A stretch of DNA of 32,124 bases from a virus (lineage: Duplodnaviria > Heunggongvirae > Uroviricota > Caudoviricetes), in IMG/VR virus record IMGVR_UViG_2877953467_000004, positions 1 through 32,124 of that record; one strand, given 5' to 3'. A program made the position numbers and the translations under genes. A model generated the notes under the pieces. That model saw only the letters and a program-made list of their open reading frames with translations, was not told the DNA's origin and ran no database searches. Below, in pieces: positions 703-32,124 of the stretch (position 1 is its first letter; each line of letters opens with the position of its first letter).

Positions 703-1065
703 GGGGCTGATTCTGGATTCGACGGGATTTGCGAAACCCAAGGTGCATGCCGAGGGGCGGTTGGCCTCGTAAAAAGCCGCAAAAAATAGTCGCAAACGAC
801 GAAAACTACGCTTTAGCAGCTTAATAACCTGCTTAGAGCCCTCTCTCCCTAGCCTCCGCTCTTAGGACGGGGATCAAGAGAGGTCAAACCCAAAAGAGAT
901 CGCGTGGAAGCCCTGCCTGGGGTTGAAGCGTTAAAACTTAATCAGGCTAGTTTGTTAGTGGCGTGTCCGTCCGCAGCTGGCAAGCGAATGTAAAGACTGA
1001 CTAAGCATGTAGTACCGAGGATGTAGGAATTTCGGACGCGGGTTCAACTCCCGCCAGCTCCACCA
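703..1065 (+). ncRNA. ssrA: tmRNA (transfer-messenger RNA, SsrA)
   Basis: Begins GGGGCTGATTCTGGATTCGACGGG, contains the tag-reading-frame region (GCAAACGACGAAAACTACGCTTTAGCAGCTTAA) and ends with the T-arm GGTTCAACTCCCGCCAGCTCCACCA; 363 nt. Confidence 0.93.
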
Positions 1066-1108: not shown

Positions 1109-1124
1109 GGTAGTGGCGGCAAAA

Positions 1125-1162
1125 TGGCGACAGACTTTTGCGTCCATCTTGCCTGTCGCCAT
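1125..1162. promoter_or_regulatory. Perfect 10-bp inverted repeat (ATGGCGACAG / CTGTCGCCAT, 18-bp spacer) upstream of the 1189 gene; candidate operator
   Basis: Seen directly in sequence; lies between the ssrA terminator and the RBS (AGAGG) of the 1189..1671 ORF. Confidence 0.25.
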
Positions 1163-1188
1163 CTTGAAATCATGCAAAGAGGTTTCAC

Positions 1189-1671
1189 ATGGAAGAACTT
1201 CACTTTGTTTACATCAATGCAAATGGTCGTATCGGTGTTCACTCTATACAGAGCATCAGTTATAGCGAAAATCATATACAGGGCATTTGTAAGAACACCG
1301 ATCGAATAAAAACCTTCCGAAAAGACCGCATTCTTAAACAGTACGATTCACCAGAACAAGCCATTCAGGAGTGCGCGTCATTCCTCCCCGAAAACTACTC
1401 ACATCTCACCAAGCAGTCTGGTCCGAAAAAAAATACATTCGATGTATGTTTCACCGGATTTAAGAAAGCAGATAAAGAAAGATTGGTTGATAAGGCGAAT
1501 GAACAAGGATTAACGGTAAGAACCTCTGTAACCCAAAGCCTTCAGATGCTCTGTTGCGGTTACAATGCAGGCCCATCAAAAGTATCGGCAGCCCGGATGA
1601 AAGGCACAATCATCATAGATGAGCCTGGCTTTATACATTTTCTTGAAACGGGTGAGATCCCAGATGAATAA
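1189..1671 (+). CDS. Small two-domain protein with C-terminal BRCT-like domain; prophage cargo (moron) candidate
   Basis: 160-aa ORF with good RBS; C-terminal half (DVCFTGF...GPSKVSAARMKGTIIIDEPGFIHFLETGE) matches the BRCT pattern of NAD-ligase-type BRCT domains; visibly A+T-richer than neighbouring phage core genes. Confidence 0.7.
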   Translation: MEELHFVYINANGRIGVHSIQSISYSENHIQGICKNTDRIKTFRKDRILKQYDSPEQAIQECASFLPENYSHLTKQSGPKKNTFDVCFTGFKKADKERLVDKANEQGLTVRTSVTQSLQMLCCGYNAGPSKVSAARMKGTIIIDEPGFIHFLETGEIPDE

Positions 1672-1697: not shown

Positions 1698-1916
1698 TCA
1701 AAAATTCATATGCCCCTGACCACCTGGCAATGGATGTGGAGGAGCAGTAGCAATCAGTGCGGGTGTCACAATAAACCGGACCACTGTTTCATGGGTAACA
1801 AAAGTGCTCCCGCAGTTAATATTTTGGCACTGGCAGTAACGCTCTTTGGTGCTTTCAGTTACTTGAAAACTGCTCCTTGTGTGTGCCGCATGACCACACT
1901 TTGGACAATTCATCAT
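1698..1916 (-). CDS. ogr: Late-gene transcription activator, Ogr/Delta zinc-finger family
   Basis: MMNCPKCGHAAHTRSS...KERYCQCQNINCGSTF...PHPLPGGQ closely parallels P2 Ogr (C-x2-C...C-x4-C zinc finger); start set at the internal Met pair rather than the longest ORF. Confidence 0.85.
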   Translation of the reverse strand: MMNCPKCGHAAHTRSSFQVTESTKERYCQCQNINCGSTFVTHETVVRFIVTPALIATAPPHPLPGGQGHMNF

Positions 1917-7649: not shown

Positions 7650-8822
7650 TTACGCGCTGACCTGGCTGGCGAAATTCACCAGGTACTGATCGGTGATGCG
7701 CTGGCGCAGCATCAGATTTTCAAGTGGCGGCACTGGCGTGTAGTCGTAGTCGATGGTGAGTTTTCCGGCTTTAAGCGTGTCTTTGTCGTTCACCGACTCG
7801 TCCAGCCAGCAATCACCACCAATGAGATAGCCCTGACTGACCAGGCTGCGCATTTTGGCGCGGATACCTTCGATAATGTCGCGGGCCAGCGACGGGTTCA
7901 GCGGTTTGTCCACCGCCCACATGTGTGCTTCTGCCATCGTGTCCGTCAGCACCTGCGCCGTGCGGGTGTAGTTTTCGAAAGCAAAAAGCGGATCATCGCT
8001 CAGACAGCGGGAACCCCAGAAGCGGAAACCATCCTTGCGCACAAGCGTGGTGACGTCGTTCTGGTTCAGCAGACCTGCATCGGTTGCCGGGTCCTGCAGA
8101 TCCCAGAACACATCAGCAGAAATTCCGGTGACACCGTTCACGCCCACGTTGGACAGGCTTTTGTGCCATCCGGTCTGCTCATCAATTTTGGCGCGCAGAC
8201 CGAGCGCACGGGCGGTGGCATAAGCCGTTGCTTCGGCATTCAGCACCGTGTCCCAGCCAGTAAAGTCGGGCCAGATCAGCATTCCTTCACGCTGACTGAA
8301 GTTTTCACGGTAAGTGATTGCTTCCTGCACCGTCTTGCAACCATACGCTGACAGGTAAGCAAACCCACGCAGGCTTTGCGCCACGCTCAGCAACTCAGTA
8401 GCTACCGCCTTCGTGTCGTGACCTGGCACGCCGAGAATGCGCGGTTTAACGCCGAGCTGTGACTGGGCAGATAACAGGGCTTTCATGCCTGTTTTTTTAC
8501 CTTCAGCAGTCACTGCGCCGATGATATTGGTCGTGGTTTCTTCTTCCGTTTCACCCTGCGGCACACGCACAACAACGGTCACGGGTTTTGCCTGGTCAGC
8601 GATGGCATCCAGCGAACGGGCCAGCGTGCCGGACTCACCCGCTTTACCGCTGGCAGTCAGCACATCAGTGATCAGCACGGGTTTATTAAGAGGAAACATT
8701 TTTGCATCGGCATCATCGCCCGTGCAGACCATACCCACGATGGCGGTGCTCACCGTGGTAATGGATCGGGTGCCTTCGTTAACTTCAACAACGCGCACCC
8801 CGTGGTGGTAATCCTGAGCCAT
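7650..8822 (-). CDS. FI: Contractile tail sheath protein FI
   Basis: 390-aa ORF, first gene of the tail operon, good RBS. Confidence 0.9.
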
Positions 8823-8898
8823 AGTGGCGAACCTCCTGATTGGATTAGGCTTCGCCCTATGTTGAAGTGATTGTGCCTGACAAACAGCTAAGCGCAGT

Positions 8899-8916
8899 TG
8901 TACCGTTATTCACACA
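8899..8916. promoter_or_regulatory. TGT-N12-ACA dyad (Ogr-type late-promoter activator site) upstream of FI
   Basis: TGTACCGTTATTCACACA seen in sequence, centred about 85 bp upstream of the FI start codon. Confidence 0.4.
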
Positions 8917-8956
8917 AAATAACGGTATTTGTCCGCTTGCAGGAAAAATCTCTGCA

Positions 8957-8982
8957 TTTTTATAAACGTTGGTTTTGGAAGT
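8957..8982. other. Candidate Gin/Cin/Hin-type 26-bp inversion crossover site (left boundary of tail-fibre invertible segment)
   Basis: TTTTTATAAACG-TT-GGTTTTGGAAGT resembles gix/hix half-sites around a 2-bp core. Confidence 0.3.
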
Positions 8983-9267
8983 TTCCCTCAATACCAGACT
9001 TTAGGTGATGGCCAGCATATTTTTCAGCACGGCTCTGGCGCTGCGAACAGTTCCGGAATAGCCGATATCGTATTCCCTAAAGCGTTCACCACGACTAACA
9101 ATCTCACCGTAACGGCGACGCCAACATCTCAGCAACCCGCAAACTACATCGTGTCTGTAGGAACCGCTACAACAACCGGAGTGCGTTTATATCTGACGGG
9201 GGCAAATGCAGGATCAACCCCTGTCGCTGCTGCCATTGGATTTCACTGGAAAGCAGAAGGAAGATAA
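8971..9267 (+). CDS. Silent alternative tail-fibre C-terminal (receptor-binding) domain cassette, no own start
   Basis: Open frame ending 3 nt before the + strand tfa start; Thr/Asn/Ala/Gly-rich sequence typical of fibre tips; opposite strand to the expressed fibre gene. Confidence 0.55.
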   Translation, partial: GFGSFPQYQTLGDGQHIFQHGSGAANSSGIADIVFPKAFTTTNNLTVTATPTSQQPANYIVSVGTATTTGVRLYLTGANAGSTPVAAAIGFHWKAEGR

Positions 9268-9269
9268 AT

Positions 9270-9683
9270 ATGAAAGTTTTTTACAGTGCCAGCCAGAACG
9301 GTTTTTATGATGATAACCAGACTCTTCCTGCAGATGCGGTCGAAATTGCTGAGTCGCTCCGAACTGAGTTAATTAGCGCCCAGAACATAGGTGGCGTAAT
9401 TAGGCCGGGAAGTGATGGGATGCCAGTGATCATCCCATCCGCAGATTATGTCCCAGAATTAACTGAAGAAGAGCAGCGGTGGTTTGCTGAATCCAAAAAA
9501 CAGTCACTGTTGTCAGAGGCAACCAATCGAATTGGACCTCTACAGTACGCGGTCGATGCAGGCAAAGCGACGGCTGAAGAGGCCGCCGACCTGATAAACT
9601 GGCAGGACTACCGGCTGGATTTGATGCGGGTTGATACGTCAAAACCTGTCTGGCCTACGCCTCCGGGGGAACAGGCCAGTTGA
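9270..9683 (+). CDS. Tail fibre assembly chaperone (alternative, silent-orientation copy)
   Basis: 137-aa ORF starting MKVFYSASQNGFYDDN... and ending ...VWPTPPGEQ, the typical Tfa shape; convergent with and overlapping the - strand tfa by about 29 nt. Confidence 0.8.
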   Translation: MKVFYSASQNGFYDDNQTLPADAVEIAESLRTELISAQNIGGVIRPGSDGMPVIIPSADYVPELTEEEQRWFAESKKQSLLSEATNRIGPLQYAVDAGKATAEEAADLINWQDYRLDLMRVDTSKPVWPTPPGEQAS

Positions 9684-21976: not shown

Positions 21977-23016
21977 TGAAAGAACATATCGCGCCAGGCG
22001 AAACCGTAACTGCAGAAGAAACTAAAAAACCCGTTGCTGAGGCTTTCAGCTTTGGTGATCCCATTCCTGTACTGGACCGCCGCGAACTGCTGGACTATGT
22101 GGAATGCGTACAGATGGATCGCTGGTATGAGCCGCCCGTCAGTTTTGACGGACTGGCACGAACCTTCCGCGCCGCCGTGCACCACAGCTCCCCGATCAGT
22201 GTTAAACGTGACATCATCAGCAGTACCTATATTCCACATCGCCTTCTCAGCCAGCAGGCATTTACCCGTTTTGTGCAGGACTATCTGGTTTTTGGTAACG
22301 CCTATCTGGAGAAGCGCACGAATCGCTTTGGTGAAGTTATTTCGCTGGAGCCTGCACTGGCAAAATACACCCGGCGCGGGCTTGACCTTGAAACATACTG
22401 GTTTGTGCAATACAGCCTGACGACACAGCCGTATCAGTTCACAAAAGGTAACGTCTTCCACCTGATGGAGCCGGATATCAACCAGGAGATTTATGGTCTG
22501 CCGGGTTACCTTTCTGCCATTCCGTCAGCTCTGCTCAACGAATCCGCCACGCTGTTCCGCCGCAAGTATTACATTAACGGCAGCCACGCAGGCTTCATCA
22601 TGTACATGACCGACGCCGCGCAGAACCAGGAGGATGTGAACAACATCCGCAAGGCAATGAAAAGTGCTAAAGGGCCGGGCAACTTCCGCAACCTGTTTAT
22701 GTACTCGCCTAACGGCAAAAAAGATGGCATTCAGATTATCCCGTTGTCGGAAGTCGCGGCGAAGGATGAATTTCTGAACATCAAGAACGTCAGCCGCGAT
22801 GACATGATGGCGGCTCACCGCGTACCGCCGCAAATGATGGGCATCATTCCCAACAACACTGGCGGCTTTGGTGATGTGGAAAAAGCGAGCCGTGTCTTCG
22901 TCCGCAATGAACTGATGCCACTGCAAAAGCGACTGCAGGAGCTGAATGACTGGCTGAATGAAGAGGTGATCCGTTTTGAAGCTTATGACTTAGGGCTTAA
23001 GGGCAAACGAGGCTGA
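21976..23016 (+). CDS. Q: Portal (capsid vertex) protein Q
   Basis: ATG at 21976 overlapping the P stop; conserved position before cos. Confidence 0.9.
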   Translation: MKEHIAPGETVTAEETKKPVAEAFSFGDPIPVLDRRELLDYVECVQMDRWYEPPVSFDGLARTFRAAVHHSSPISVKRDIISSTYIPHRLLSQQAFTRFVQDYLVFGNAYLEKRTNRFGEVISLEPALAKYTRRGLDLETYWFVQYSLTTQPYQFTKGNVFHLMEPDINQEIYGLPGYLSAIPSALLNESATLFRRKYYINGSHAGFIMYMTDAAQNQEDVNNIRKAMKSAKGPGNFRNLFMYSPNGKKDGIQIIPLSEVAAKDEFLNIKNVSRDDMMAAHRVPPQMMGIIPNNTGGFGDVEKASRVFVRNELMPLQKRLQELNDWLNEEVIRFEAYDLGLKGKRG

Positions 23017-23051
23017 CATACTCATAACATCAAAACCCGACCAACTCTCAC

Positions 23052-23087
23052 AACGCCTCAGCAGCATTCTGCGGGGCGTTTCTTTTT
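23052..23087 (+). terminator. Putative intrinsic terminator downstream of Q
   Basis: GC-rich imperfect hairpin followed by TCTTTTT. Confidence 0.3.
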
Positions 23088-23177
23088 GCCCTGAATCTCC
23101 CCCCCCCTCCACTAAATGAGGCCGCCAGCGGGCCAGAGGCTGTGCCGGATTTTGGCCATTTTACCCCGTTGCGCGCG

Positions 23178-23196
23178 CTCGTATCCCCGCCACGCC
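23178..23196. other. Candidate cos cohesive-end site
   Basis: Reverse complement reads GGCGTGGCGGGGATACGAG, resembling the 19-nt cohesive ends of P2/186 as I recall them (GGCG(A/T)GGCGGGGAAAGCA-); correct position between Q and the early region. Confidence 0.35.
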
Positions 23197-23245
23197 TGCC
23201 CGCTTTGTGTAGTGGTTTTCATGCACCTGCATGACATAAGCAAAA

Positions 23246-23267
23246 GCCCGCCAGTTCTGGCGGGCCT
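23246..23267 (-). terminator. Hairpin terminator downstream of the tum/dinI operon
   Basis: Perfect 9-bp stem GCCCGCCAG-ttct-CTGGCGGGC followed by a short T-run on the - strand. Confidence 0.4.
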
Positions 23268-23399
23268 GAGCAAAAACGATCCTCAAACGATCATGCGATT
23301 TCATGCGGCATAGACATGCACAACAGCACTAACGCCTCGCGTGGCTCGTTGTTCAACCTTGCGGACGGTAAAAACCAGTTTTATCGTCCGCAACGTTCG

Positions 23400-23633
23400 C
23401 TAATGTAACCAGCTGTCGTCCTCCCAGACCTGCTGCATTATTTCCATCACTCGCTTTTTATCTTCATCCAGTTTTAACCCGCTCAGCTCAACGCCGTTGG
23501 CACTGCCCTTACGGATACGAATTGCTGTTTTGGGATACAGAGGGCGCAAATTACGGTAAAGCTCGGATTCAAGGGCGTCCAGTGTAGCCTGGCTAATCTT
23601 CTGCTCTTTATCGATCATTATTTCAATGCGCAT
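23400..23633 (-). CDS. dinI: DinI-family protein
   Basis: 77-aa ORF MRIEIMIDKEQ...EIMQQVWEDDSWL resembles E. coli DinI in length and pattern. Confidence 0.8.
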   Translation of the reverse strand: MRIEIMIDKEQKISQATLDALESELYRNLRPLYPKTAIRIRKGSANGVELSGLKLDEDKKRVMEIMQQVWEDDSWLH

Positions 23634-23644
23634 ACAGATTTCCC

Positions 23645-23833
23645 TTAACTGGTTACGTCCATTGACCGGCAGTATTCATGGCTGCGGATTTTCGCCATCA
23701 GCTCGTCGGTCAATTCAGACACCCACTGGATAGCCAGCCGCTTTTCTTCGTCGCTGCACTCACTAGCCGCTACAAGCTTAATAAAAAAATCAATGCGCTG
23801 GAGCTTCAACGACTCCAAAAGATAGTCCTGCAT
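23645..23833 (-). CDS. Small SOS-regulated protein, putative Tum-like antirepressor N-module
   Basis: 62-aa ORF with GGAGG RBS, directly downstream of a LexA box and upstream of the dinI-like gene, as in the 186 tum operon. Confidence 0.5.
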   Translation of the reverse strand: MQDYLLESLKLQRIDFFIKLVAASECSDEEKRLAIQWVSELTDELMAKIRSHEYCRSMDVTS

Positions 23834-23880
23834 CTTCCCTCCTATCACGACCCCGGACATGCGTTAACTGCATGCATATC

Positions 23881-23900
23881 CACTGTTTATATATACAGTA
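23881..23900. promoter_or_regulatory. LexA operator (SOS box)
   Basis: cACTGTttATATATACAGTA matches the consensus TACTGT-N8-ACAGTA almost perfectly. Confidence 0.75.
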
Positions 23901-23994
23901 TACCCCTGATATCCAAAAGTAAAATATTTTTTATCCGTCAATGAGAACGTTCTTACGAGGGTCGTTAAGAGCATGAATTGTTAAAGCCTTGCCG

Positions 23995-26388
23995 TCAGTA
24001 CCACTGGCGCCATTTGTCATCTTCCTGCAGTCGATGGTTGCGGTAAAAAATCCGTAGCCCGGCACCTGACGGAATGCTGCCACCACGCAGAAGCAAATCA
24101 ATCTCAGATGCACTACCTTCAAACCCTCTGGCAGTCAGTTCTGCCTCAAGCTGCAGGCGCTGCTGCTCCGAAATACTCTGTTTGAATGCTTTTTTCCGCT
24201 TCGGTTTTACCAGTCTTAACCTGGCTGTCAGCTCCCGGCGTTCCTTCTGGCCCATATTGTGGAGGTAATCGTGCAGTTCCTGCTCATTCATGGTTTTAAT
24301 ATCGGGCAAATCACCCCCTGATTTGTTCAGATTTTCAACAGGGGGACAGTTATTGCCACGAGTCCAAGGGGCGCAAGCGCCCTGGTCGGCTGCCGCCTCC
24401 TGAACGTCAACGGCTTTACGAACCATTTTCCACTTCACTGCATGAGTGCAGATCTTGCCCTCTGCAATGGGTGACCAGATGCCATAAATACGAATGCCGT
24501 GATCGCCATAGGCGGTCGGCTCTTCGTTGATTTCATAAGCGGTTCTGATGAGGTGATATTTACGGGGAACCAGTACGCCGCCCTGCTTCATGATGTAGGT
24601 GGCAAAACAACCAGCATCAGCAGCAGCCAGAATGGCATCAAGACGCGGGTTATCCAGTACCGGCGCACCTGCATTTTTGTCCCCCTGTTGCCTTGCCGCC
24701 TGACCAGCCAACAATCGCAGTTCACGGTAAGCCTGACGCCCCGGAATGCCAAAGAAGCGGAATTGCTGAACACGATGCAAAGACGCCCAGGCATTCACGT
24801 ATTCAGCGTTATCACGCAGAGATTTACCCGTTTCCTTGCTGATCTCGCCAGCCAGACCACGACCGTCAATGTTCTTACTGATATATTTCGCGATGTAGCT
24901 TGTCGGCGTTCCTTTGCGCGGGTTAATCAACTCAGACTTAAAGCGCGGCCCAGTGTTATTGCCCAGCTCCTCGCGGTCTTCACGGATGGCAAACTTACGC
25001 AGTAATGCAGTGATGGCACGGCGGTCTTTTTTGCGCATGAAACACAACAGGTGCCAGTGAACTGTGCCATCATGATGCGGCTCAGCCACCCGCACGCCAT
25101 ACCAGCGCAACCCGGCTTTGTGCATCGCCTTACGAAATGCAGCAAACATGCCGACCAGATAATCGCTGCTTTGTCTTACCGTCGCGTTTGTCCAGGTCGG
25201 GTTTGGTCTGCCGTTATTTAGCGTGGAATGGAAACGCGACGGACAGGTGATAGTGTAGAAAACGGCGCAGTCACCGCGCATTTCCGCGATAAGCTCCAGA
25301 CCTTTAACACAGGCCATCATCTCATTGCGGCGATGCGCAGGGTTGCTGCTGCTGGCGTTTACCACATCCTCCATGTCCAGCGTGTCGCCGTCTTCGTTCA
25401 CCAGTTCATGAGAACGGAAAAACTCCAGCGACTTACGGCGCTGCTCACGTTTATGCATCACGGCTTCATAGCTGACATAAGGAGATGCTTTTTTGCTGAC
25501 CAGGCAAACAGCGCGCAACTGCTCTTCCCGCCATTCGCAACGCATCTTCCATAATTTCCGATACCACCAGTCGGCGCACAACATACGCGCCAGCGAACCC
25601 GGAATGAGTTCATAGGGCACGGGTTTACGGCGGTTTCTTTTCCGACGGAGTTGCTCAAACGCAGGTGGGATGACATCCAGACGCAGGGTTTCCGCTGCCA
25701 CCTTTTCCCATGTCTTGCGGATTTCTTCTGGCTTAACGTCATCGGTGGCATACAAATCACCACAAGCTGCATCAAGGCACATACTCATATGCGCAGCTAC
25801 CAGGGTGGACAGGCGTTTCACCTGATCCTGACTCATTTCAGGCAGGATCAGCAGGCCGTCCAGCCCTTCATGGCTTGCCATAAAGCGAAAAGATGCAGAT
25901 AGCTGACTGTCGCGTACATGCTCCAGTCGTTCCAGACATGGCTTAATCGTCTCACGTAAATAGCGGGAATAAGCCTTTGGCCTGCCCAGGCTGCTGAAGT
26001 ATTCAATACGTTGCATCAGCGGCTTGCTGATATGGGAAGGCTGGGCGTTGACGTCCGCCAGAATGACCATGTCTGAATTAAAACGCTGCTGCTCATGCGC
26101 CAGCTTTGCCCGGCTAATGAGCTTATCCTGCTCCATTTCGCGCTGGACAGGATCACGTGATTCATTAAAGAAATAACGCTCCCAGACCTGATCACTCAGT
26201 GCCTCGCGGCGCAACTGTTCCTGCTCGTTATCGGCAGCGTACAGAGTGATCAGGTTTGAAAGCGTAGAAACCGGCGCAACTTCCGCCGGGTCCAGATAAG
26301 GGTTAATGGCCTTTTTCGGGCTGTTCCATGAGAATGCTGCGGCAGCCTCGTTAAAGCCGCAGCAGTTGTTCATATCGGCATGAGTCAT
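23995..26388 (-). CDS. A: Replication initiation endonuclease A (rolling-circle initiator)
   Basis: 797-aa ORF at the P2 gene A position with the expected size. Confidence 0.9.
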
Positions 26389-29390: not shown

Positions 29391-29491
29391 CACAAAAATA
29401 CGATCTCGTTATTGGATTGTCAAATGGAGAGTTCATCTTGAAGATTAGTACAGGTGCAAATACGGGAGGGAGAGAGACCATCAAAAGGCTG

Positions 29492-30067
29492 ATGACAGCC
29501 TATGGTTTCAACACTCAGATAGCGTTGGTTGAACACCTCGAAGCATCAAAAAGCACCATGGCAAACAGGATGTTACGTGATAGCTTCCCTGCTGACTGGG
29601 TTATTCAATGTGCCCTTGAAACAGGTATTTCTCTTCTTTGGCTGACAACGGGCCAAGGGGAAATGTATCCTCAAACAGAAGAAAAAAATAAGTTCAAAAA
29701 CGAGAGTTCACCTATAGTTCGCCCCCTTTCAAAGATAGTTATCCCATCAGTAAGGCAGGCAACCATTGAGAACGGAACGCTCGAAGAGATGGGGGATGTT
29801 TTCCTTGATCAGACTTTGATACCCGGAAAAGCCGAATATTGTTTGTACGTCAAAGCTAACGACGGCAATTACATTGTTGATACATCAACAAAACAGCTTA
29901 GTAACGGAATTTGGCTCATAGACATCGACGGTATGAAAAACATCGTCAAAATTGCGCGCATACCTGGAAACAAAATAGTAGTTAACCAAGATGACACTTC
30001 ATTTGAATGTTCTGTAGATGATGTGGAAGTCGTAGGACGTGCAGTCAAAGTAATCAAGAACCTCTAA
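29492..30067 (+). CDS. cI: Immunity repressor CI (186-type)
   Basis: N-terminal HTH (FNTQIALVEHLEASKSTMANRM); ATG at 29492 gives 191 aa, close to the 192-aa size of 186 CI as I recall it; immediately upstream of int. Confidence 0.8.
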   Translation: MTAYGFNTQIALVEHLEASKSTMANRMLRDSFPADWVIQCALETGISLLWLTTGQGEMYPQTEEKNKFKNESSPIVRPLSKIVIPSVRQATIENGTLEEMGDVFLDQTLIPGKAEYCLYVKANDGNYIVDTSTKQLSNGIWLIDIDGMKNIVKIARIPGNKIVVNQDDTSFECSVDDVEVVGRAVKVIKNL

Positions 30068-30070
30068 CTT

Positions 30071-31090
30071 ATGACCATCAGAAAACAGCCGAACGGAAAA
30101 TGGTTGTGTGAGTGCTATCCCAATGGACGCAATGGTAAGCGCGTGCGTAAGCAATTTGCTACCAAAGGCGAAGCTATTGCATTTGAAAGCTTCACAATGG
30201 AAGAAGTGAACAAAAAACCATGGCTGGGGGAAAAGGAAGATCGGCGACATTTATCAGAATTAATTGAGCTGTGGTATTCCCTGTATGGTCAAACACTCAC
30301 AGACCCCAAGCGCCTCATGGCGAAACTTAGTATTATCTGTAATGGTCTAGGCGATCCCATCGCTTCAGAACTGACAGCCGGTGACTTTACGAAATACCGC
30401 GAAGCACGGTTAAAAGGTGAAGTACGAAATGAAGATGGCACGCTTATGTCGCCCGTTAAGCCCCGCACGGTAAACCTTGAACAGCGCAATCTATCATCTG
30501 TTTTTGGTACACTGAAAAAGCTGGGCCACTGGTCAGCCCCCAACCCGCTTGCCGGGCTGCCAACATTTAAAATTGCTGAGAGTGAATTGGCGTTCCTGAC
30601 CCCGGAAGAAATTAAACGTCTGCTGGATGCCTGTGCTGATTCTCAAAACTCTAGTCTGCTGACGGTTGCAAAAATATGTCTGGCCACCGGCGCGAGATGG
30701 AGTGAAGCCGAAAACCTGCAGGGCCATCAATTATCAAAATACCGGATCACCTACACCAAAACTAAAGGCAAGAAAAACCGAACCGTACCGATATCTCAGG
30801 AGCTATATGAAGAACTCCCCAAAAACAGAGGGAAACTATTCACGCCCTGCAGAAAAGCTTTTGAGCGCGCAGTAAAACGAGCCGGTATAGACCTGCCTGA
30901 AGGCCAGTGCACACACGTGTTGCGCCATACATTCGCCAGTCACTTCATGATGAATGGCGGAAACATATTGGTACTACGCGATATTCTTGGTCACTCTGAT
31001 ATAAAAATGACGATGGTTTATGCTCATTTTTCGCCAGATCATTTAGAAGATGCTGTAACAAAAAATCCACTGGCTATGTTGGGATACTGA
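30071..31090 (+). CDS. int: Tyrosine integrase (P2/186 family)
   Basis: 339-aa ORF with the catalytic-box pattern R...HxxRH...Y (HVLRHTFASH...VYAHF). Confidence 0.93.
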   Translation: MTIRKQPNGKWLCECYPNGRNGKRVRKQFATKGEAIAFESFTMEEVNKKPWLGEKEDRRHLSELIELWYSLYGQTLTDPKRLMAKLSIICNGLGDPIASELTAGDFTKYREARLKGEVRNEDGTLMSPVKPRTVNLEQRNLSSVFGTLKKLGHWSAPNPLAGLPTFKIAESELAFLTPEEIKRLLDACADSQNSSLLTVAKICLATGARWSEAENLQGHQLSKYRITYTKTKGKKNRTVPISQELYEELPKNRGKLFTPCRKAFERAVKRAGIDLPEGQCTHVLRHTFASHFMMNGGNILVLRDILGHSDIKMTMVYAHFSPDHLEDAVTKNPLAMLGY

Positions 31091-31092
31091 TA

Positions 31093-32124
31093 ATGGAAAA
31101 AAGCATTAGCACATTTATGTACCTATCCGTTTTATTAGGTTGTATATTCTTATTTATAAAATATCGACTTTATGTTCTCGATCATAGAAGCCTGTTCCAA
31201 CAACCCTTGTTCTGGGCTGCAATAGGCCTACCTTTATTCACCAGCCTTTACTTTGGTTCTTTTGTCTGGATAGATAAAATACACTCTTTTAGTCTTACAA
31301 GTCACGGTTATGAGAGATTTTTAGATATCTCGAAATTACCATTACTCATCCTTGCATCTGCAGTACCTTTAGTTTCAATAGTAAACAACCTACACAGAAC
31401 CAAACAAACAGAAAAACAGATCTCAGAGGCAGAAAGGAAAAACAGGGTAGATTTATATTACAACCACATGAAATTTCATCTTGATTTATATAAAAAAATC
31501 GAAGGAAAAAGAATAGGCAGCTACTACCCGGTTCAGGAAGCTCAAGCTGAAGCAATCTACCAACATTTTATAAAACATCCACAAGAACTATATAGAAAAG
31601 CATACCCACAATCTACGCCTGATGATTCTCAACAATTAGATATTAATGAGCAATTTGTTATTGATTTACACAAATGTTGGGTAGAAATCAACGCAAGACT
31701 CAAGCAATTATCCGAGAGTGAAAATCAAATACATCCTACAGAGGAACTTTGCACAACAAAGATGAGAATATTTGTAGGAGTTATGATTATTTATGAAAAA
31801 ACTTGTAAACTGTTGTGTTTAGGTGGATTTCATTATAAAAAGTCATTTGTAATAAATGATAGTTATAATAAATACCAAGTTTATTCACCATTTTATGATT
31901 TTGGCACTCTGTACGAATCACTGCAATCCTTAGAAGAGATAACCTACGCCTTCTTGGATACTTGCAGAAATGAAGTGGTAAACTTGTACTTCCCTATAGA
32001 AGATAAAATTTTGATATATGGTGAAGGGATTCTAGAGAATTGGTTCAAGTATTCTCAGTTCTTGATCACTATAGCTTATCAACCCGCCAAGATGTCTCGC
32101 TTACCCCAGCTGAGACGCGATTGA
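31093..32124 (+). CDS. A+T-rich membrane-anchored protein of unknown function; prophage-end cargo candidate
   Basis: 343-aa ORF starting 2 nt after the int stop; three predicted N-terminal TM helices then a helical soluble domain; abrupt drop in G+C at the int stop. Confidence 0.65.
   Translation: MEKSISTFMYLSVLLGCIFLFIKYRLYVLDHRSLFQQPLFWAAIGLPLFTSLYFGSFVWIDKIHSFSLTSHGYERFLDISKLPLLILASAVPLVSIVNNLHRTKQTEKQISEAERKNRVDLYYNHMKFHLDLYKKIEGKRIGSYYPVQEAQAEAIYQHFIKHPQELYRKAYPQSTPDDSQQLDINEQFVIDLHKCWVEINARLKQLSESENQIHPTEELCTTKMRIFVGVMIIYEKTCKLLCLGGFHYKKSFVINDSYNKYQVYSPFYDFGTLYESLQSLEEITYAFLDTCRNEVVNLYFPIEDKILIYGEGILENWFKYSQFLITIAYQPAKMSRLPQLRRD

Follow-up and report, generated by a model that had tools for sequence, protein, structure and literature searches.

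In the 32,124-nucleotide stretch of viral DNA considered here (hereafter the window), taken from IMG/VR record IMGVR_UViG_2877953467_000004, an open reading frame (ORF) on the plus strand at positions 1189 to 1671, with an ATG start and a match to the family phrog_2561 (E=2e-77), encodes a protein of 160 amino acids (aa), about 18 kDa and with an isoelectric point (pI) of about 7, which is made of two distinct folds, namely a WYL domain in its N-terminal half and a BRCT domain in its C-terminal half. This WYL-BRCT gene is a phage-derived accessory gene of P2-like prophages, and many of its homologues in distant phages lie right after the repressor gene cI, in the lysogeny operon. The family has already been catalogued, is mislabelled in public records and is functionally uncharacterised. 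The reading favoured here, tentatively and at a little short of an even chance, is that the protein would be a non-enzymatic sensor or binder of single-stranded DNA (ssDNA) and of DNA structures bearing a 5'-phosphate, which the lysogen would express and which would serve superinfection exclusion or defence. Studied WYL domains are nearly all sensors carried by transcription factors, and bacterial BRCT domains are mainly known as appendages of LigA; the two joined in a stand-alone protein beside a P2-like repressor would mean that prophages can read DNA structure by a route still to be explored.

The BRCT domain covers aa 84-154 (1438-1650, plus strand) and comes after a pair of short helices (aa 55-73) and a linker modelled with low confidence (aa 74-83), both delineated from DSSP and from the predicted local distance difference test (pLDDT) of the model (1351-1437, plus strand). 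The original prediction for this gene had proposed such a domain from a residue pattern and named profile searches as the way to challenge it; these searches recovered the fold. While the Pfam BRCT model (PF00533) matches aa 84-145 of the window protein with 19.5 bits, just under its gathering score of 21.3 (E=1.1e-3), it matches 45 of the 51 homologues at E<=0.1 (best 2e-6), and the family profile in turn matches the BRCT domains of Thermus LigA and of human and yeast RFC1 in the PDB with E-values from 4.5e-5 to 6e-5. The AlphaFold model (pLDDT 91.8) displays the BRCT beta-alpha pattern. The phosphate pocket of BRCT domains is defined by a Ser/Thr-Gly pair after strand beta1 and a Lys at the start of helix alpha2 (PMC10386641), and both elements are present, as T89-G90 and K131, all three residues being invariant across the 51 sequences. 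Around this pocket K92, K93 and K96 are conserved at >=90% in the same sequences, and a conserved motif, ETGE-I/V-P, follows the domain at the C-terminus. From the family-profile alignment, K96 would be the counterpart of an RFC1 arginine. Judged from its residues, the conserved pocket fits the binding of nicks, 5'-phosphate DNA or a phospho-ligand; binding of poly(ADP-ribose) or NAD+ by BRCT domains has also been reviewed (PMC10386641).

The N-terminal half, about 80 residues which had been regarded as unassignable, turns out to be a WYL domain (aa 3-52; 1195-1344, plus strand), i.e., a five-stranded Sm-like barrel bearing the motif K41-T-F-R-K-D-R47 within the wider pattern F-x-Y...H-I-Q-G-I-C...K-T-F-R-K-D-R-I. 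A fold search was needed here because the sequence-only link of this domain to solved WYL structures was not significant (PafBC, E=0.44). When aa 1-76 were modelled alone (pLDDT 92.5), a five-stranded barrel followed by two helices was obtained, for which the best fold-search matches were WYL domains, two of them solved with ssDNA bound. The Pfam WYL model (PF13280) gave no match to the window protein itself at E<=10; it is matched by eight of 51 close homologues and by 23 of 55 longer homologues (best 1.2e-8), and the PADLOC WYL profile by 30 of the 55 longer homologues (best 7.9e-11). As such, the membership of the window protein in the WYL class is carried by clear homologues together with the modelled fold. 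The strand motif K41-T42-F43-R44-K45-D46-R47-I48 fits the consensus R-x-F-R-x-D-R-I, and its aligned counterpart in PafBC is 'RNFRLDRV'; in the 51 sequences T42 never varies, and F43, R44 and D46 each reach a conservation of >=90%. At the position of the eponymous triad the protein reads H-I-Q (N28-H-I-Q-G32), with a weak alignment to the triad 'WYF' of PafBC, the triad itself being variable among accepted WYL domains. The fusion as such is not new, since WYL-BRCT was listed as an existing architecture in 2014, in a work that also tied WYL domains in general to defence regulation (PMC4012209). For the window protein, recognising the WYL domain turns the picture of a plain BRCT adaptor into that of a two-module sensor. 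The gene that follows one homologue (L026 6601-7206) seems to start with a second WYL-like sequence (…HYKDSSGDISERL…RRTFKLANI…); this gene has no Pfam match.

Compared with the regulators in which WYL domains have been studied, i.e., the HTH-WYL-WCX proteins (HTH, helix-turn-helix) CapW, BrxR, DriD and PafBC, the present protein differs in several respects. No HTH family matched it and the WYL barrel begins at residue 3, so that, for want of a winged-HTH and of a full WCX, it is not a transcription factor of this type; its triad reads H-I-Q, the CapW-type arginines are missing, and a BRCT domain stands as the output module. In CapW, ssDNA is contacted by arginines flanking the triad, as in RWHVR (PMC11662680), and because these residues are not present here, the ligand of the WYL domain may differ. 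The BRCT domain, for its part, finds its best sequence matches in LigA, in subunit B of the phage heterodimeric ligase and in RFC1, with which it has the same fold and the T-G...G-x-S-K pocket, and in those proteins the BRCT domain contacts nicked or 5'-recessed DNA; unlike in LigA and RFC1, it comes without a catalytic or AAA+ partner, with a near-neutral charge and with the ETGE-I/V-P tail.

Public records give the family other names. Both phrog_2561 and RefSeq phage records label it 'DNA ligase', and the record of phage Cartapus calls the gene product 'putative exonuclease' (records concerned: NC_049342.1, NC_008201.1, NC_070909.1). That the gene might truly encode a DNA ligase or an exonuclease has these names in its favour, and deserves practically no credence. 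Models of the NAD+-dependent DNA ligase LigA match only aa 42-151, via their last ~100 positions, with TIGR00575 reaching 19.6 bits against a cut-off of 444, and the adenylation, OB, zinc-finger and HhH domains were not found in the protein; the DEDDh exonuclease model NF004719 matches through positions 229-307 of 331, i.e., its BRCT tail, at 26 bits where the cut-off is 389. All these matches thus come through the BRCT part alone and fall far under the cut-offs, and 160 aa occupied by a WYL and a BRCT fold leave no room for an adenylation, OB or exonuclease domain. Both labels are errors spread from the common BRCT domain and need correcting. Membership in the PADLOC candidate system PDC-S48 was likewise rejected: the BRCT domain at the C-terminus of its profile is closely related (E=1.8e-7 with the window protein, and as low as 1e-44 with a multi-BRCT relative), yet the match covers only about positions 321-406, or 335-406, of the 411, and the remainder of the profile is unrelated to the WYL-BRCT protein.

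The distribution of the gene agrees with its phage origin. Among 5426 complete E. coli genomes, it occurs in 171 (~3%), always with this prophage, against 185 genomes with the co-occurring allele of ogr, the late activator gene next to it. A conserved host gene at ssrA, the transfer-messenger RNA (tmRNA) gene at which the prophage is integrated, had been raised as an outcome that would overturn the prediction; it is ruled out, as only these 171 genomes carry the gene, each with the prophage. In other E. coli P2-like prophages, nothing was found between ogr and host DNA in the ogr-att slot, and the view of an A+T-rich accessory gene of the prophage therefore stands. The slot between ssrA and ogr in a related prophage of E. 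coli strain 5735 (L073 3609-4524) holds a 256-aa reverse transcriptase (Pfam RVT_1, E=1.9e-21), a 57-aa ORF and IS421; the reverse transcriptase could belong to a retron, DRT or Abi-type system. As a whole, the family counted 122 proteins in a word-indexed search and at least 200 clusters at E<=1e-30 in an exhaustive search of 50%-identity representatives; it is present in phages of Yersinia, Vibrio, Mannheimia, Burkholderia and Pseudomonas, in many Gammaproteobacteria and in some other phyla.

The view of a gene standing isolated at the ssrA junction is changed by the genomic context of its homologues, surveyed over 65 loci with our own ORF calls and clustering. P2-like marker genes are found in 38 of them, and in 28 the repressor gene cI lies at most three genes upstream on the same strand, being adjacent in 23, with a gap between cI and the WYL-BRCT gene of 5-78 bp in most of the cI-linked loci. 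Downstream come int, or variable cargo then int, or the convergent tail gene D. In phage PHL101, CI is followed by ORF34, the WYL-BRCT homologue; in phage PV94 the order is repressor, WYL-BRCT gene and, further downstream, int; and further contigs with precomputed Pfam matches display the same cI-linked arrangement. The position right after cI and before int or attP is fixed across phages of Enterobacterales, Pasteurellaceae, Vibrio, Aeromonas, Pseudomonas and Burkholderia. In the window, the lysogeny operon, consisting of a 186-type cI, int and a 343-aa cargo ORF, occupies 29417-32124 on the plus strand, as delineated from Pfam Phage_CI_repr and Phage_CI_C on the cI ORF and from the annotation of near-identical prophages and of Cartapus. 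The free phage Cartapus presents cox leftward and, rightward, cI, int and cargo, then a gap of 287 bp, the WYL-BRCT gene and a convergent ogr; this gap must contain attP. With the order cI, int, cargo, attP and WYL-BRCT gene in Cartapus, it follows that synteny with the lysogeny operon has been kept. In the circular phage genome the cI-int-cargo genes thus lie directly upstream of the WYL-BRCT coding sequence, on the same strand and across attP, while in the integrated state the gene sits downstream of ssrA, again on the same strand. Integration cuts between the cargo gene and the WYL-BRCT gene; in the lineage of the window, the latter seems to have been displaced to the ssrA junction with the lysogeny-operon synteny retained. 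Rather than an isolated gene, it is a conserved cI-downstream gene of the lysogeny operon, here parted from cI and int only by attP.

By comparison, the content of the interval between int and attP varies. It holds a 343-aa membrane protein in the window, a 222-aa protein in the prophage of E. coli 2012EL-2448 and a 401-aa 'RES' protein in Cartapus, and the WYL-BRCT gene is 97-100% identical across these three near-identical relatives. Because each of the three holds a different gene, the int-att slot looks like a cargo hotspot. The 343-aa ORF of the window (31093-32124, plus strand), which follows int, has 34.2% G+C and hydrophobic N-terminal segments, and matches phrog_17460 over its full length; it has no Pfam or PADLOC match.

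A position so fixed raises the alternative that the protein senses DNA damage and modulates lysogeny or induction, i.e., that it would bind ssDNA gaps or 5'-phosphate junctions and tune the SOS response, the repressor or the integrase, thereby stabilising or triggering the prophage. RecFOR loads RecA on ssDNA gaps and 5'-phosphate junctions, the WYL domains of DriD, PafBC and CapW sense ssDNA as a DNA-damage signal, one homologue adjoins a DNA-alkylation repair gene, and a place right after cI while the cargo varies fits such a role better than that of swappable defence cargo; if the protein were an induction tuner, lysogeny control would be tied to the sensing of ssDNA with no need for cleavage mediated by RecA. 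On the other hand, the neighbouring cI is of two types differing in their C-terminal domain (HTH-S24 peptidase or 186-type), which makes a specific repressor partnership unlikely; the protein has no HTH or other output domain, the gene is absent from most P2-like prophages, and both the membrane-anchored forms and the prophage-free island loci with Abi, Mrr or HNH genes, described below, are hard to fit. We hold this alternative to be rather unlikely.

The architecture of the family was surveyed over the top 150 representatives, transmembrane segments being predicted by Kyte-Doolittle with a 19-residue window. Stand-alone proteins of <=200 aa account for 85 of the 150, the other 65 being longer. 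Transmembrane segments are predicted in 47 (about 30%), lying all N-terminal to the WYL motif in 34 of these and C-terminal to it in three; the membrane-anchored members carry one to four predicted helices (e.g., L052 5536-6492, L057 5719-6519 and L075 6001-7248), and some of them occupy the same cI-downstream slot in P2-like prophages. Besides, a domain of ~190 aa, called here domain X (phrog_36782, phrog_31886), is found at seven loci, either fused at one end or the other (L029 5989-7116, L038 5974-7164, L016 5443-6489 and L018 5242-6456) or encoded by an adjacent gene (L020, L044 and L065), which makes it a candidate for a partner or an effector. Neither the N- and C-terminal extensions nor domain X matched any family of Pfam or PADLOC. 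The 343-aa ORF of the window was considered as a form of domain X and rejected, having no similarity to it. By analogy, a constant sensor-like module combined with variable membrane or other modules would resemble the sensor-effector layout of many abortive-infection proteins.

Outside P2-like prophages, the examined neighbours of the homologues include AbiGi with AbiTii, an MrcB_N-HNH nuclease and, twice, Mrr, with one of the Mrr loci belonging to an integrative island where a DNA methylase gene is found as well; elsewhere the neighbours are housekeeping genes or the above-mentioned DNA-alkylation repair gene. Inside P2-like prophages, the interval between cI and int also holds SEFIR/TIR, KAP NTPase and DUF7380/DUF4209 proteins. 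At locus L075, the cI-int operon that contains the membrane-anchored WYL-BRCT homologue also encodes, two genes further on, a SEFIR/TIR_2-domain protein (8114-9544). A 2026 preprint lists both the integrase-att and the integrase-primase interval as minor defence hotspots of P2-like phages (10.64898/2026.02.27.708500). Like the P2 genes old, tin and fun and the hotspot systems of Rousset et al. (2022; PMC9122126), the WYL-BRCT gene is an A+T-rich accessory gene of P2-like phages, and like P2-like defence cargo it lies in or beside these minor hotspots; unlike such cargo, it has no sequence relation to known systems of this kind, stands outside the two main hotspots and keeps a constant place by cI across distant genera.

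In an anti-defence role, the WYL-BRCT protein could be a decoy or sponge that protects the phage or prophage from host immunity by masking phage DNA ends or nicks, by mimicking the BRCT domain of LigA or by sequestering a nucleotide used as an immune signal. Its small size and lack of enzymatic activity are those of known sponges and decoys, its near-neutral pI would suit a binder of small ligands, one homologue stands in an operon with a TIR protein and, by analogy, the BRCT pocket and the WYL domain could both bind nucleotides or phosphorylated ligands; a WYL regulator sensing cyclic di-GMP has been reported (PMC11880434). Nevertheless, the gene is oriented with the lysogenic operon and opposed to the early lytic operon, anchoring to the membrane in ~30% of the representatives is unusual for sponges, and some homologues belong to chromosomal or island defence clusters rather than to phage early regions. 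The context favours defence over anti-defence, which we consider distinctly unlikely. As for a helper in phage DNA transactions, acting at attP during integration or excision, at the nick made by protein A in rolling-circle replication or at cos ends, this would be a long shot. It would account for a gene adjoining attP and int and for a BRCT domain of the LigA/RFC1 class, which acts at nicks and 5' recessed ends, but most P2-like phages, including close E. coli relatives, lack the gene, and homologues are found in islands with no phage replication or integration genes nearby. Moreover, tyrosine integrases are not known to leave 5'-phosphate ends.

The sensor or binder acting in exclusion or defence, which we place first, can be laid out as follows. 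The WYL domain, whose class has ssDNA or nucleotides as ligands in CapW, BrxR, DriD and PafBC, would provide ssDNA or nucleotide recognition; the BRCT domain, of the LigA/RFC1 type, would recognise a phosphate, in the typical case the 5'-phosphate of a nick or of a recessed end. Transcription would run in the lysogenic direction, after cI and int when the genome is circular and after ssrA once it is integrated. In the lysogen the protein would recognise abnormal DNA, for instance a nick, a gap or ssDNA adjoining a 5'-phosphate end, as would arise when foreign phage DNA enters or replicates, and by blocking or sequestering this DNA it would achieve superinfection exclusion or defence. Relatives would couple this sensor module to a membrane anchor or to domain X, which may be the effector. 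In its fullest form, which we regard as possible and rather doubtful, WYL-BRCT would be a previously unrecognised prophage immunity sensor, sequestering DNA alone or, when fused to one to four membrane helices or to domain X, forming a device for abortive infection or exclusion made of a single protein.

Several observations weigh against this proposal. The 160-aa form has no effector or enzymatic domain; the family is of roughly neutral charge, with a median pI of about 7 that would not be expected of a generic DNA binder; and N28...G32 lacks the arginines with which CapW, on either side of its WYL triad, contacts ssDNA. The stable post-cI position beside varying cargo, across distant P2-like phages, looks more like that of a component of the lysogeny module than of swappable defence cargo. 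No PADLOC model spans the whole protein, the match to PDC-S48 being confined to the BRCT part; a consensus scan of the plus strand between 1000 and 2100 found no sigma-70-like promoter; and a literature search on WYL-BRCT, BRCT in prophages or P2-like phages, anti-phage BRCT and PDC-S48 found no functional study, the 2014 listing of the fusion being its only mention. Were the protein nonetheless a defence or exclusion factor, it would constitute a new type of sensor in phage immunity and explain a gene of ~3% of complete E. coli genomes; the full immunity-sensor form would give the BRCT domain its first functional role in bacterial antiviral defence, in a setting where the upstream source of transcription would be the cI-int operon of the phage before integration and the tmRNA gene of the host after it.

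Regarding the gene itself, the features initially noted around it were recovered. It is A+T-richer than the phage core (41.8% G+C against 53.9% for the prophage), with a G+C content at third codon positions of 0.41 against 0.62 for gene D. It has its own ribosome-binding site, AGAGG, read from the sequence at 1178-1182 (plus strand), 6 nt before the ATG. Upstream, the leader contains an inverted repeat or hairpin (1113-1166, plus strand) whose arms, ATGGCGACAG (1124-1133) and CTGTCGCCAT (1153-1162), form a perfect core of 10 bp, or 14 nt at 93%. Because relatives have kept the left arm alone, this repeat is probably an element of the attP arm rather than a conserved operator; a conserved operator or RNA element was not supported, the right arm being unconserved and Rfam finding only the tmRNA. 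The leader (1066-1200) folds much better than shuffled sequence (z = -4.4), and a small hairpin predicted at 1165-1187 (TGAAATC/GGTTTCA) pairs part of the ribosome-binding site; this folding may provide translational control or may simply reflect attP arm structure. On the other side of the gene, a hairpin terminator common to the WYL-BRCT gene and to the convergent ogr lies at 1673-1690, with a 7-bp stem, between the WYL-BRCT stop and the ogr stop at 1698; its T-run is good on the minus strand and weaker on the plus strand.

The window starts with smpB (1-483), followed by ssrA (703-1065, plus strand; ARAGORN and Rfam), the 3' end of which (1041-1065, plus strand) forms the junction with the prophage. 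After ssrA, the window is a P2/186-like prophage of the family Peduoviridae, and the region around the WYL-BRCT gene shares 98-100% identity with E. coli chromosomal prophages, 98.3% with phage 500465-1 and 97.6% with the free phage Cartapus. No second copy of the ssrA 3'-end sequence (1041-1065) was found within the window, and attR is not inside it. The first phage bases (1066-1135, plus strand) constitute the flank of the attachment site and supply, in place of the native ssrA terminator, a strong hairpin terminator (1074-1101) with a 12-bp stem followed by a T-run. These bases are 92-98% identical in Fels-2, RE2010, SopEPhi and Klebsiella P2-like phages and are common to P2-like phages integrating at ssrA, and in the Fels-2 annotation their counterpart is part of attP; matches to the stretch also occur in ~820 E. 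coli genomes, in part at att remnants close to ypjA. Next to the WYL-BRCT gene, the 72-aa ogr/Delta-type late activator is encoded convergently at 1698-1916 (minus strand). Between the portal gene and gpA (~23000-23995 in the window), the main defence hotspot of P2 is almost empty, with small ORFs only, one of them at the position of the DinI-like gene of a relative; in the otherwise near-identical prophage of E. coli 2012EL-2448 (L006 2840-5189), this hotspot contains three extra genes, encoding a TIGR04255 family protein, a regulator and a hypothetical protein.

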